Source: Escherichia coli
GTDB taxonomy: Bacteria > Pseudomonadota > Gammaproteobacteria > Enterobacterales > Enterobacteriaceae
NCBI RefSeq assembly: GCF_046105845.1
Contig: NZ_CP151004.1
DNA: 64,000 bases
Reading direction: 5' to 3' (one strand)
The notes beneath the pieces were generated by a model. It had not been told where the DNA came from. It saw only the letters and a list, made by a program, of their open reading frames with translations, and did not search any database. Shown piece after piece: positions 40,277 to 64,000 of this stretch. Numbering within the stretch: the first letter of the stretch is position 1; every line of letters begins with the position of its first letter. A program made the translations under genes and the position numbers.

Positions 40277-41572
40277 TTAATCGCTGTTTTTGGCAATTAA
40301 ACGTTCCGGGATAACAAAACTGAAACGTGTTCCTTTTCCTACTGTACTCTCAATATTCAGGCGACTTTCGTGATGATTCACCGCATGTTTCACGATCGCT
40401 AACCCTAATCCGCTACCGCCGGTTTGCCGGGAACGCGCTTTATCAACGCGATAAAAACGCTCGGTCAGGCGCGGAATATGCTCCGGTGCAATGCCCGGTC
40501 CGTTATCTTCAACGCTAAATTCAGCACCGTGCGGCACTCGCTGCCAGCGTACGGTGATATGCGTGCCTTCCGGCGTATGATTTACGGCGTTATAGACCAG
40601 GTTCGAAATCGCACTGCGTAGCTGATCTTCGTTGCCAGACACCTTGAGGCCGTTATCTATCTCAAAGGTAAATGTCTGTTTTTTCTGACTCAGAGTCTGA
40701 GCCTCGCGCTCAACAACGCGCAGCATCATTGGCACATCAACCTTTTCATTGAGCAAATGCGTCGGTGCGGCTTCTATTTTCGACAGCGTCAGCAACTGCT
40801 TCACCAGCCCTTCCATCCGCTGGGTCTGCTCGCGCATGGTGTGCAACGCTTTTTCACGTACCGCGCCTTCCAGCGGTTGCTCATCCATCATCTCCAGGTA
40901 ACCCTGTAACACGGTCAATGGCGTACGTAACTCATGGCTCACGTTGGCAAAAAAGTTACGCCGCGCCCCTTCCAATTGATGCATTTGCGTGACATCACGC
41001 GCCACCATCAGCAACTGTTTGTGGGTATAAGGCATGACGCGAATTTCCAGATGCCGCCCGGTGTTGAGCACCAGATTAAGCGGGCGAGAAAAATCACGCG
41101 TTTTCAGATATTGCGTAAACTCCGGGTAACGCAGCAAGTTAAGGATGTTCTGCCCGTTATCTTCCGGCCAGCGCAAGCCAAGAATCTGTTGCGCCAGACC
41201 GTTACACCAGAAAATACCGCCCTCTTCCGTGGTCAGCACCACCGCGTCGGGCAGCGACTCCGCGCCGCTACGAAAGCGTTTAATCAGATTGCCCAGTTCA
41301 CGGCGGCGTTTTTTATTTCGCAGCTGCATCTGGTGTAAGCCGTATAGTAGCGGTTCCCAGCTACCACGCCCCGGTGGCGGGGTCATACTGCGATCCACCC
41401 ACAGCCACCATGAAAGGCGCAATAAATTCCAGAAATGCCAGATAAGCAGTCCTGTTACCGATGCCAGCAAAAACCAGGGCAGGTAACCAAAAAATACACC
41501 CAGGATGAAAGCCGGGAGGCAGCAAAGTAGCAGCTCCAGCACCAGCCTTTTCCACGACAGCCGTTCCAGCAC
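40277..41572 (-). CDS. phoR: phosphate regulon sensor histidine kinase
   Basis: 431 aa; H-box SHELRTPL and HATPase motifs; recognised sequence. Confidence 0.95.
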
Positions 41573-48296: not shown

Positions 48297-49205
48297 TTAC
48301 TCTTGTGGCCATAACCACGCAGCGCCGCGTACGCCGCTGGAATCACCGTGCTTCGCCTTACGCACCGGCGTTTCACATTCGCCGCCGAAGACAAATTGTT
48401 TAATCAACTGCGGAACCGTTTGATATAAACGGTCTACATTGCTCATCCCGCCCCCCAGGACAATCACATCCGGATCGAGAATATTCACGACATGTGCCAG
48501 CGATTTTGCCAGCCGCAGCTCGTAGCGACGCAATGCCAGTTCCGCTACCGGATCGCTTTCTTCAACCAGGCGGATAATTTCACTGCCTTTCAGCGCATGT
48601 CCGCTCAAACGACGATAATCCGTCGCGAATCCCGTGCCCGAAATAAAGGTTTCAATACAACCTTGTTTACCGCAATAACAAGGGACTTCCTCGCGATAAC
48701 GCAGTTCGTCTTCGTCCATCCACGGTAGCGGATTGTGTCCCCACTCACCTGCCGTGCCATTGCCGCCGATATGCGCCCGCCCATTGAATGCCACGCCCGC
48801 GCCGCATCCCGTGCCGATAATCACGGCAAATACCGTCTGCGCTCCCGCTGCCGCGCCATCTACCGCTTCTGAAACCGCCAGACAGTTGGCGTCATTTGCC
48901 AGCCGCACTTCCCGCTGCAACCGCGCGCTTAAGTCTTTATCGAATGGCTGACCGTTGAGCCAGGTTGAATTGGCATTCTTCACCACGCCGGTGTAAGGCG
49001 AAATTGAGCCAGGAATGCCCATACCTACCGTTCCGCGCAGCCCTGTCGCCTGCTCCGCCATATCAACCAACGTGGCGATCGTTTCAATAGTCTGCCGGTA
49101 ATCATCACGCGGCGTGGGCAGACGATGGCGGTACAACTGCTCCCCTGCATCGCCCAGTGCAATCACTTCAGTTTTGGTGCCGCCTAAATCGATACCTATA
49201 CGCAC
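48297..49205 (-). CDS. mak: fructokinase / manno(fructo)kinase (302 aa, non-ATG start)
   Basis: ORF-track entry 48297..49343 trimmed to (V)[21 protein letters not shown], a ROK-family N-terminus. Confidence 0.85.
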
Positions 49206-56068: not shown

Positions 56069-56159
56069 AGCACCATCCCTCTTCATGTTTTAACCATGAG
56101 CGTGTGCGCCCGTGATCTGCCATTAAGTCTGGTTGCTAACAGCAAAAAAACCACCCGAC

Positions 56160-56185
56160 AGCGAAAATTCACCGCCGGGCGCGGT
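56160..56185 (-). terminator. putative partial terminator between phoA and psiF
   Basis: ACCGC-cgggc-GCGGT hairpin with T-rich flanks on both strands immediately 3' of the phoA stop. Confidence 0.4.
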
Positions 56186-56186
56186 T

Positions 56187-57602
56187 TTATTTCAGCCCCA
56201 GAGCGGCTTTCATGGTGTAGAAGAGATCGGTCTGGTCGGTCAGTCCAACGACATTGGCAGCATGTGGGCCATACGCTGCAATACGCAACTGACTGCCGGT
56301 ATGTTCTTGTGAATCCTCTTCGGAGTTCCCGTAACTCATCACCATCACTGCGCCATCTTTTGTATTTAGCGCCTGGGTGAGGCCCGGCGCTTTGGTGTCC
56401 GGCGCGACAATCTGGCTGGCGTGGGCGTGATCAGCGGTGACTATGACCAGCGTGTTGCCATCCTTTTTAGCGAATTCCAACGCCCGTTGTACGGCTTCGT
56501 CGAGATCGACCGTCTCGCCAATTTGCCCACAAGGATTCGCAGCGTGATCCTGTTTATCGATTGATGCACCTTCAACTTGCAGGAAAAAGCCTTTCTCATT
56601 TTTACTCAACAATTCAATGGCTTTGTCGGTCATCTGCGCCAGGGTCGGTACGCTGTCATTACGTTGCGGATTAGGCGTACAGGTAACTGCGGGCTTGTCG
56701 ATATTGCCGTGGTACGTTGCTTTCGGTCCTAGCCAGCGCACTGGCATATTGCCGTCAGCAAACAGTCCTAGCAGGGGTTTTTGCTGGTTCGCTTCCGTCA
56801 CCGCATTTAGCGAGGCAGCATCACTCACCAACTGATAACCACGCGCCTGTGCCTGTTCACGCAGCGTTTTTCCCTGCCATTCACCGGCGGTTGCCGTTTC
56901 AGCAAAGGTTTTTGCGCCGCCGCCAAGCGTAACATCGGCACGAGCGTTAAGCAGCTGTTCGGTAATCGATCCTTTCCCGCCTTTTTCTAGCGTGTTACCC
57001 GTACATTTTTCACTGGTCACGCTCGGACCGTAGCATTTGCGCGAGGTCACATGCGACACCAGCGCAGCGGGCGTAGCATCCTGCAACTCTGCGGTAGAAA
57101 CGTTACCGGTCGCCAGACCTGCGGCTTTTGCCATTTCCAGAATCGTTGGGTGATCTTTTTCGTGAATATCGACGCCCAGCGCGCCGTTATAGGTTTTGAC
57201 ACCAGTTGACCAAGCGGTTGCTGATGCAGCCGAGTCGGTGACGTAGTCCGGTTTGCCGGTTTTTTTATTCAGCGCATAGTGAGTGTATTGCCCGGTAAGC
57301 GGTAATGCATCGATACCTTTAAAAAAGCCGCCCGCACCTTCGGCATAATTGCGTGCAGCAGTAATTTCCGAGTCCCCCATCCCATCGCCAATCAACAAAA
57401 TAATATTTTTGGCAGGTTTATCGCTAAGAGAATCACGCAGAGCAGCGGTCTGATCCCCCGTTAAGCGGCGAGCACCGCCGGGTGCAGTAATATCGCCCTG
57501 AGCAGCCCGGTTTTCCAGAACAGGCATTTCTGGTGTCCGGGCTTTTGTCACAGGGGTAAACAGTAACGGTAAGAGTGCCAGTGCAATAGTGCTTTGTTTC
57601 AC
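56187..57602 (-). CDS. phoA: alkaline phosphatase precursor (471 aa, GTG start)
   Basis: ORF-track entry 56187..57644 trimmed to (V)[20 protein letters not shown] signal peptide; active-site [12 protein letters not shown]. Confidence 0.95.
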
Positions 57603-57662
57603 TTTATTTTCTCCATGTACAAATACATTAAAAAATAAAAACAAAGCGACTATAAGTCTCGG

Positions 57663-57682
57663 CCGTGACAGCTTTATGACAG
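57663..57682 (-). promoter_or_regulatory. Pho box of the phoA promoter
   Basis: Minus strand reads CTGTCATAAAGCTGTCACGG, two CTGTCA-type direct repeats about 60-80 nt upstream of the phoA start. Confidence 0.8.
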
Positions 57683-57963: not shown

Positions 57964-58424
57964 GTCTGTATTTCCTTATCCAAAGTATGGAGAAGTTAAC
58001 ATTATGTTTCACAACTTCATAGTGTCTGGAAGTATTATTTTTATGACAAAGGAAATACTTTGCGCAAATATTTTTTGTTTGATTACCAGCGAAACGTTTC
58101 TCTTATTTAAATAATTACCCTCACAAAATATAGGCTTTTAATTATCAACCTTTATTATAAATAAAAGTTATGAAATATATTCTCTTCGTTAACTTATAAT
58201 TAAGAGAAAAAACTCACTGCATGGCCATTTAAGCCAGGAATAAATTAGCTTCCCGTTCATCATTTTTGTGATCTTGCGCACATCATTGAGATAACGCACT
58301 TTCTTCACCAGTACGTTGCACGCTTTGTCAGCAGAAGATTGCAACATTCTGTCAGAAGGCCGCGAATCCCCCGTTTTGTCGTGGTAATGTATGCACTTTG
58401 TGTTAGACGGGATAGGTTTTTAAG

Positions 58425-63059: not shown

Positions 63060-64000
63060 TTGAAACGTAGTCTGCTTTTTTCTGCCGTGCTGTGTGCGGC
63101 GTCATTGACCTCCGTCCATGCGGCGCAGCCTATCACTGAACCGGAGTTTGCCTCTGATATTGTCGATCGTTATGCCGATCATATTTTTTACGGCAGCGGT
63201 GCCACGGGGATGGCGCTGGTAGTTATCGACGGTAACCAGCGCGTCTTTCGTAGTTATGGCGAAACGCGACCTGGTAATAACGTTCGCCCGCAGCTGGACT
63301 CGGTCATACGTATTGCTTCCCTCACCAAGCTAATGACCAGTGAGATGCTGGTGAAATTGCTCGACCAGGGGACCGTGAAGTTAAACGATCCGCTAAGTAA
63401 ATATGCTCCGCCAGGCGCACGCGTACCGACTTACAATGGGACGCCCATTACGCTGGTGAATCTGGCAACCCATACCAGCGCCCTGCCCCGTGAACAGCCC
63501 GGTGGCGCGGCACATCGTCCGGTGTTTGTCTGGCCGACGCGCGAGCAACGCTGGAAATACCTTTCCACAGCCAAACTAAAAGCCGCGCCGGGCAGCCAGG
63601 CCGCGTACTCTAACCTTGCGTTCGACCTGCTGGCAGATGCACTGGCGAATGCGTCCGGCAAGCCTTATACCCAGTTGTTTGAAGAGCAGATTACCCGTCC
63701 ATTGGGGATGAAAGACACCACCTACACCCCCTCGCCGGATCAGTGCCGCCGTTTAATGGTTGCTGAGCGTGGTGCCAGTCCGTGCAATAACACGCTGGCG
63801 GCAATTGGCAGCGGCGGAGTCTATTCCACTCCTGGCGATATGATGCGCTGGATGCAGCAGTATTTGTCATCTGATTTTTATCAGCGCAGTAACCAGGCAG
63901 ATCGCATGCAGACGTTGATTTATCAGCGAGCGCAGTTTACAAAAGTGATTGGCATGGATGTCCCCGGCAAAGCGGATGCGCTTGGTTTAGGCTGGGTATA
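63060..64000 (+). CDS. ampH: penicillin-binding protein AmpH, N-terminal ~313 codons (3' end beyond window); probable TTG start
   Basis: Manual translation from 63060: LKRSLLFSAVLCAASLTSVHAAQPIT ... IASLTKLM (SxxK active-site motif); no in-frame ATG between the upstream stop at 63012-63014 and 63060; frame open to the window end. Confidence 0.85.
   Translation, partial: MKRSLLFSAVLCAASLTSVHAAQPITEPEFASDIVDRYADHIFYGSGATGMALVVIDGNQRVFRSYGETRPGNNVRPQLDSVIRIASLTKLMTSEMLVKLLDQGTVKLNDPLSKYAPPGARVPTYNGTPITLVNLATHTSALPREQPGGAAHRPVFVWPTREQRWKYLSTAKLKAAPGSQAAYSNLAFDLLADALANASGKPYTQLFEEQITRPLGMKDTTYTPSPDQCRRLMVAERGASPCNNTLAAIGSGGVYSTPGDMMRWMQQYLSSDFYQRSNQADRMQTLIYQRAQFTKVIGMDVPGKADALGLGWV

Follow-up and report, generated by a model that had tools for sequence, protein, structure and literature searches.

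Which codon starts phoA, and how far can an open reading frame (ORF) track that reports the longest frame be trusted for phoA and its neighbours? We addressed both questions in a 64,000-nucleotide stretch of the Escherichia coli chromosome running from tig to ampH, hereafter the window. The first-pass annotation of this DNA had reported non-ATG starts in four genes, phoA among them, together with ORF entries that run upstream of the recognised protein N-termini. In the ORF track each frame begins at the first ATG, GTG or TTG after a stop codon. For phoA this rule yields a 485-residue entry with a TTG start (56187-57644), which is 14 codons longer than the frame from the GTG at 57602-57600. We regard it as almost certain that phoA is an ordinary gene with a GTG start, that the longer entry is an artefact of the longest-ORF rule which affects 26 of 60 genes, and that the 8 of 60 genes with non-ATG starts are a normal share.

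Identity of the window and reference gene starts

All 60 K-12 MG1655 proteins from tig to ampH could be mapped onto the window with their order kept and at 97-100% protein identity, and the window is oriented opposite to K-12 coordinates. A 14-kb query taken from the window found matches covering 80% or more of it in 5,414 complete E. coli genomes (95-99% identity or better), the closest of which was strain MEW (99.2%). The annotated records of K-12 MG1655 and of MEW (PGAP) served as references for gene starts. Over the 60 mapped genes, the start codons are 52 ATG, 7 GTG and 1 TTG. For the genes whose ORF entries had to be trimmed, the short starts agree with the K-12 annotation, and the PGAP lengths in MEW equal the K-12 lengths in 25 of 26 cases, so that the alignment to curated proteins proposed as a check upheld the trimming. 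The exception is malZ, for which the PGAP start lies one codon earlier than that of K-12.

The phoA coding sequence and its start codon

The coding features of phoA are as follows; the signal peptide and the ribosome-binding site were read from the sequence.

57611..57614, minus strand: Shine-Dalgarno (SD) element GGAG of phoA, 8 nt upstream of the GTG
56187..57602, minus strand: phoA coding sequence, alkaline phosphatase precursor of 471 aa, from GTG 57602-57600 to the stop at 56189-56187
57540..57602, minus strand: codons of the 21-residue Sec signal peptide
56152..56181, minus strand: terminator-like stem-loop and T run just past the phoA stop (consensus scan, pattern match only)

By homology, the GTG at 57602-57600 corresponds to the first residue of K-12 PhoA, and PGAP annotates the same extent of the gene in strain MEW. 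The start codon that had been assigned to phoA is hence the K-12 start. The translation matches Pfam PF00245 (E = 3.4e-135; 451.7 bits, cut-off 24.4) and contains the motif D-S-A-A-S, which we take to be the active-site serine motif. At its N-terminus, charged residues are followed by a hydrophobic core and by a cleavage motif of small residues, a pattern common to 18 Enterobacteriaceae sequences. PhoA is predicted from this to carry an N-terminal Sec signal peptide for periplasmic export, with cleavage presumably before RTPEMPV. The predicted anti-SD pairing is -6.4 kcal/mol at the GTG and -3.0 kcal/mol at TTG 57644. Translation of phoA would begin at the GTG, 8 nt past GGAG, and the resulting precursor would carry a Sec signal peptide of 21 residues. 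The candidate terminator has 13 pairs, eight of them G-C, and the tail GTTTTTTTGC.

The locus closely resembles that of K-12 (b0383), with which it shares the gene order iraP-phoA-psiF, the GTG start, the GGAG site, the signal peptide, the -10 hexamer TATAGT and the position of the Pho box. The two PhoA proteins are 98.5% identical, with seven amino-acid differences over 471 residues. A literature search on the GTG start of phoA and on the start codon of mak found no relevant papers.

Promoter and leader of phoA

Three features occupy the region upstream of the phoA start codon, of which the -10 hexamer was likewise read from the sequence.

57665..57682, minus strand: Pho box CTGTCAT-AAAG-CTGTCAC (ctgtcataaagctgtcac), a putative PhoB site found by consensus match
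57649..57654, minus strand: -10 hexamer TATAGT, 10 nt downstream of the Pho box
57603..57644, minus strand: longest-ORF extension of phoA, 14 codons from TTG 57644, corresponding to the 5' untranslated leader

The Pho box consensus consists of two CTGTCAT repeats placed 4 bp apart (PMC4447250). Position 57682, at which the segment singled out in the first-pass annotation ended, is the 5' edge of this box and not an ORF boundary. The layout is that of the Pho regulon, in which the Pho box replaces the -35 element upstream of the -10 hexamer, and TATAGT is probably the promoter -10 element, given its position relative to the Pho box and established knowledge of such promoters. A scan for sigma-70 promoters found no -35/-10 pair at the phoA promoter, and the number of hits equalled that in shuffled sequence; the miss is expected because a PhoB-dependent promoter lacks a -35 element. 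On this evidence phoA would be transcribed from the minus strand under a PhoB-dependent promoter. TTG 57644 sits 5 nt past the -10 element, whose position suggests that transcription starts near this codon. The TTG would belong to the untranslated leader, close to the expected transcription start, and the longer ORF entry is almost certainly an artefact of the rule. A search of the entire window with Rfam, run at gathering thresholds, returned no matches, so that the leader is not explained by an RNA element.

The length of the extension is itself variable among strains. The second repeat of the Pho box reads CTGTCAC in the window and TTGTCAC in K-12 (C versus T at window position 57671), and because of this single base difference the phoA extension is 14 codons here compared with 23 in K-12. 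Among 5,426 complete E. coli genomes, 616 carry the allele of the window and 4,771 that of K-12. Extension length also differs among the window, K-12 and MEW for cyoE, yajR, yajQ, yajO and acpH, making six of the 26 trimmed genes with phoA, while the proteins are unchanged.

Conservation of the phoA initiation region

A DNA-pattern scan for a PhoA motif in species-representative genomes identified 120 loci, including about 20 Enterobacterales loci with flanks. At the position of the phoA start, the 18 Enterobacteriaceae sequences have GTG in 14 cases, TTG in two and ATG in two, so that GTG or TTG is kept in 16 of 18. The start is preceded by GGAGA in 17 of the 18, and by AGAGA in one metagenome-assembled genome (MAG). 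By contrast, only E. coli among the 18 has an in-frame TTG at codon -14, and 10 of the 16 non-E. coli sequences are without any upstream in-frame start-like codon. What is kept across genera in this region is a string of nucleotides: the Pho box, TATAGT or a close variant, then cgct(t/c)tg, with the E. coli TTG falling inside the string. In E. albertii and one divergent "E. coli" representative, a 1-nt difference in the length of a T run in the leader shifts the frame, and a frame-shifting change of this kind is a hallmark of non-coding sequence.

One could speculate that the non-ATG start and the near-invariant initiation region of phoA (GGAGAAAATAAA-GTG-AAACA) are under selection to limit initiation of a strongly induced exported protein and, separately, that one or two upstream codons elsewhere in the window (a GTG upstream of rdgC, for example, or the start of the araJ extension) give rise to minor extended forms. 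We consider this an unlikely addition to the simpler reading of an ordinary GTG-started gene.

Over-extension by the longest-ORF rule

The first-pass annotation had put the number of over-extended entries at 20 or more, and the count against the reference starts is 26 of 60. Their extra codons add up to 527 (median per gene 15.5, maximum 53 in yajG). As a null model, we walked upstream in frame from each gene and scored it as over-extended if a start-like triplet preceded a stop triplet. Over the 150 nt that precede the genes, start-like triplets have a frequency of 0.0527 and stop triplets one of 0.0497, which gives an expected fraction of 0.515. With shuffled upstream sequence, 29.2 +/- 3.8 genes are expected to be over-extended compared with the 26 observed (binomial p = 0.25), and the null overall comes to about 29-31 of 60. 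Going upstream in frame from a genuine start, one would thus meet a start-like triplet before a stop about as often as the reverse. Since the observed rate equals the chance rate, over-extension is a property of the ORF rule and not of the locus. The over-extension had been called systematic; this holds in that it is a mechanical effect of the ORF track, but not in the sense of a bias, the rate being that of chance.

In all these respects the window shows no difference from the start-site error known for longest-ORF calling in prokaryotic genomes: the rate of extension follows the ratio of start-like to stop triplets, the extensions are without ribosome-binding sites or coding signal, and they reach into neighbouring genes or promoters (secF, mak, rdgC). 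The same error has already been corrected by PGAP in strain MEW, where the short start is used in 25 of the 26 genes.

Taken as it stands, the raw longest-ORF track would give 26 of the 60 window proteins false N-terminal extensions, would bury promoters and leaders in "coding" sequence, as with the Pho-box promoter of phoA, and would mis-predict the signal peptides of exported PhoA, Tsx and YajG. A practical rule is to trim each entry to the start that is backed by a ribosome-binding site, homology and K-12 experiments, after which about one gene in seven begins with GTG or TTG. The value of the result is for annotation only, and no new biology follows from it. This was also the judgement of the first-pass annotation, with which curated annotation, SD and codon signals, sequence variation and K-12 experiments all agree.

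Sequence signals at the competing starts

Could the longer starts nevertheless be genuine in at least a handful of the 26 genes, whose curated starts would then be wrong or coexist with N-terminally extended forms? Proteoforms extended in this way are found in E. coli, albeit rarely: TRAINSPOTTER reported 17 upstream sites, and Ribo-RET found 6 in BW25113 and 36 in BL21. Pooled over the 26 genes, the sequence signals favour the short starts. The strength of the SD interaction, calculated as the duplex energy with the 3' tail of the 16S rRNA, averages -6.3 kcal/mol at the annotated starts and -2.75 kcal/mol at the longest-ORF starts, and in 21 of the 26 genes the stronger pairing is that of the annotated start (Wilcoxon p = 1.6e-4). 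The ORF-track start is at least as strong in yajO, yajI, acpH and araJ, and the two are tied in malZ. Codon log-odds were trained on gene bodies versus intergenic sequence; the mean is -0.32 in 501 extension codons versus +0.23 in matched downstream codons (p = 2e-12), a contrast that carries some bias in favour of our conclusion, as the background included the extensions. The phoA extension scores -0.56 (non-coding) versus +0.17. Two extensions, those of araJ (+0.44) and rdgC, are mildly positive, and these exceptions, like the one-codon difference in malZ, are what would be expected if a few longer starts were in use.

Protein profiles and comparison with relatives speak against such use. 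Pfam profiles start 1-3 residues into the short form for mak, rdgC and proC, and the profile of RdgC begins at residue 2. The cross-genus comparison of extensions covers six of the 26 genes (phoA, mak, proC, yaiI, psiF and yaiZ), and in all six the extension is interrupted or absent in relatives. For proC, yaiI, psiF and yaiZ, most of the compared genomes keep the annotated ATG, and the extensions seen in E. coli are not conserved. At the homologue of the mak start codon, three other genera have GTG and Kluyvera has ATG, with a stop codon directly upstream in Kluyvera. In rdgC, a GTG four codons upstream recurs in four of five genera, which would suit an extended form, but Cedecea has no upstream start-like codon. 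The phoA extension, for its part, begins in the -10/+1 region of the promoter.

Published initiation data from K-12

All experimental support for the gene starts comes from K-12 and was transferred to the strain studied here. In the nascent N-terminomics data of TRAINSPOTTER (Table S1), 14 window genes have a peptide that begins at the annotated start, namely aroL, yaiA, proY, tgt, secF, yajD, nrdR, ribD, ribE, thiL, yajO, dxs, yajR and tig (PMC13245402). All 14 peptides are encoded identically in the window, and all 14 genes begin at the short position. Five of them are trimmed genes (proY, ribE, yajO and yajR among them), and none shows an upstream form. In proY the two candidate starts are adjacent codons, and the short one is fixed by its peptide in K-12.

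INRI-seq (Table S2, which also lists in vivo Ribo-RET results from Meydan et al.) adds initiation peaks; its templates carry a leader of about 30 nt, and its signals therefore show that a short start is competent while being blind to initiation far upstream (PMC9825163). Across the genome, 86% of the annotated starts that are expressed were recovered by Ribo-RET, and the upstream in-frame sites seen in BW25113 numbered only six (bioRxiv 10.1101/520783). Combining the tables gives some experimental support to 48 of 59 genes in the window, to all eight non-ATG starts and to 22 of the 26 trimmed genes, and in 13 of the latter this includes in vivo data. In the same tables no initiation data were found for the remaining trimmed genes (cyoE, tsx, sbcD and rdgC), in which a longer start is accordingly less improbable.

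Among the genes with K-12 data, the number in which a longer start is supported is zero, and no experimental N-terminus lies at a longer start. Genuine extended proteins were accordingly rejected for every gene with data, on the grounds of peptides, sequence signals and comparison with relatives. Taken over all 26 genes, we judge it highly improbable that even a few of the longer starts are genuine, and retain the reading of short starts with a rule artefact upstream. Given the 97-100% protein identity to K-12, initiation probably takes place at the short starts in the present strain as well.

N-terminal sequencing of mature proteins is blind to the start codon of exported proteins because the signal peptide has been removed. 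Their start codons call instead for initiation-site profiling or for methods that capture nascent, formylated N-termini. The exported proteins concerned in the window are PhoA, AmpH, Tsx, YajG, YajI, PsiF and YaiW.

Other non-ATG starts

Non-ATG starts occur in eight of the 60 genes (13%): nusB, ribD, secF, secD, phoR, mak, phoA and ampH. The four genes that had been named as having such starts (phoA, secF, mak and ampH) were named rightly, and four further GTG starts, those of nusB, ribD, secD and phoR, had been missed. The starts other than that of phoA, each equivalent to the K-12 start, are as follows.

22672..22674, minus strand: nusB, GTG; SD pairing -8.3 kcal/mol
24354..24356, minus strand: ribD, GTG; SD pairing -9.3 kcal/mol
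28164..28166, minus strand: secF, GTG; longest ORF from ATG 28211, 15 codons upstream, inside secD
30022..30024, minus strand: secD, GTG
41570..41572, minus strand: phoR, GTG
49203..49205, minus strand: mak, GTG; longest ORF from TTG 49343, 46 codons upstream
63060..63062, plus strand: ampH, TTG; also the longest-ORF start, the gene running past the window end

In nusB, ribD, secD and phoR, the longest-ORF start coincides with the annotated start. The secF and mak entries are over-extended, and trimming them to a Val codon, as had been proposed, leads to GTG 28166 and GTG 49205, the curated K-12 starts. The GTG of secF is preceded by GAGGAG, with an SD pairing of -8.7 kcal/mol versus +0.6 kcal/mol at the longest-ORF start, and the secF extension overlaps secD by 35 nt. 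The mak GTG has AAGGAG 7 nt upstream (-9.7 kcal/mol), and the ROK domain profile begins at residue 3 of the short Mak. The extensions of mak and rdgC cross each other within a divergent promoter region of 124 nt. Overlaps of this sort make several of the extensions implausible on physical grounds.

A second alternative is that the non-ATG starts are an annotation convention and that the real start is a downstream ATG or, for ampH, the GTG at codon 10. The case for it is best in ampH, where the SD pairing at the TTG is weak (-3.0 kcal/mol), in-frame GTG and TTG codons follow at codons 10 and 16, and the K-12 tables hold no in vivo Ribo-RET signal. The initiation data for the seven genes with INRI-seq or Ribo-RET peaks in K-12 (PMC9825163) are these.

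phoA: INRI-seq yes, Ribo-RET yes; K-12 position 401747
mak: INRI-seq yes, Ribo-RET yes; annotated start
secD: INRI-seq yes, Ribo-RET yes; K-12 position 427647
secF: INRI-seq yes, Ribo-RET yes; annotated start
ampH: INRI-seq yes, in vivo Ribo-RET no; K-12 position 396287
phoR: INRI-seq yes, Ribo-RET no; K-12 position 417889
nusB: INRI-seq no, Ribo-RET yes; K-12 position 435137

In each of these genes the peak lies at the GTG or TTG itself. The K-12 peptides of secF and ribD (MQDEYYMAR for the latter) begin with the initiator Met decoded from GTG (PMC13245402), which is likewise at odds with a downstream start. Moreover, start-type codons are kept at these positions across genera, the ampH position being TTG in all three other genomes compared (two Citrobacter and one Pseudocitrobacter). 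A downstream start would also deprive AmpH or PhoA of the positively charged beginning of its signal peptide, which a periplasmic protein requires; initiation at codon 10 of ampH would delete the Lys-Arg of its signal peptide, which favours the TTG at 63060, the curated K-12 start, despite its weak ribosome-binding site. Downstream initiation is in our view extremely improbable, and the GTG and TTG codons are best taken as the true starts.

The reported split of E. coli start codons among AUG, GUG and UUG is 83/14/3% (bioRxiv 10.1101/063800), and the 13% of non-ATG starts in the window does not differ from the corresponding 17% (p = 0.61). Compared with non-AUG initiation in E. coli generally, the window has nothing distinctive, and no AUU or CUG start is needed for any of its genes. 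The finding as a whole is already known, consisting of the textbook GTG start and Pho-box promoter of phoA, the usual share of GUG and UUG starts, and a familiar longest-ORF error. Five of the eight genes with non-ATG starts encode envelope proteins, numbers that are too small for an enrichment test.

Pho box allele and leader of phoA

The alkaline phosphatase gene phoA, on the minus strand with a GTG start codon at 57602-57600, is preceded by a PhoB binding site:

57682-57665, minus strand: phoA Pho box, CTGTCAT-AAAG-CTGTCAC in the window sequence

The second repeat of this Pho box reads CTGTCAC in the window and TTGTCAC in K-12 MG1655, the differing base lying at window position 57671 (minus strand). 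The C at this position is the consensus base and is also found in E. albertii and most other genera. Of 5,426 complete E. coli genomes searched for exact matches to a 41-nt word centred on the variable base, 616 carry the C allele and 4,771 carry the T allele. Because the K-12 phoA Pho box has been reported to have low affinity for PhoB (PMC4447250), the C allele might bind PhoB more strongly.

Between the Pho box and the start codon, the leader and initiation region (tatagtcgct.tgttttt...catGGAGAAAATAAA-GTG-AAACA; 57603-57660, minus strand) was compared with loci L010-L123, which are matches from a DNA-pattern scan of species-representative genomes for a PhoA motif. Its nucleotides are near-invariant in Escherichia, Citrobacter, Enterobacter, Lelliottia, Phytobacter, and Cedecea, and the signal-peptide codons directly 3′ of it are far more variable. 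An Rfam scan of the whole window returned no match in the leader.

Low-GC islets missing in K-12

Two low-GC islets are present in the window and missing in K-12:

~18750-20700, between yajO and pgpA: 35-38% GC, with an ORF at 18973-20529 (plus strand)
~33540-35130, between acpH and malZ: 36% GC, with an ORF at 33807-34943 (minus strand)

The product of the ORF in the first islet is a pentapeptide-repeat protein of 518 aa (Pfam PF00805, E = 4e-17). The best-matching complete E. coli genome (MEW, annotated by PGAP) also carries this islet, with only 94.6% nucleotide identity compared with about 99% in the flanks. No Pfam match was found for the ORF of the second islet. Its MEW homologue is 481 aa long, with which the window copy aligns in a single frame over the full length (78% identity); an in-frame stop shortens the window copy to 378 aa, and it may therefore be a pseudogene.

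Gene calls and start codons

Three further features concern gene prediction:

58145-58347, minus strand: counterpart of a 68-aa hypothetical protein (PGAP, MEW) in the iraP-ddlA intergenic region
36941-36946, minus strand: malZ start, two adjacent ATG codons
49330-49345, plus strand: rdgC start, with an in-frame GTG four codons 5′ of the ATG

The window counterpart of the 68-aa protein is divided between two reading frames, and this ORF is probably not a genuine gene. For malZ, the K-12 annotation takes the second ATG (604 aa) and PGAP in MEW the first (605 aa). Enterobacter and Kluyvera share the GTG upstream of rdgC, and Cedecea lacks it. Shine-Dalgarno pairing with the 16S rRNA tail is weak at the rdgC start, and no initiation-profiling signal for rdgC was found in the published K-12 tables (INRI-seq, Ribo-RET); the match to the Pfam RdgC profile speaks for the ATG as annotated.
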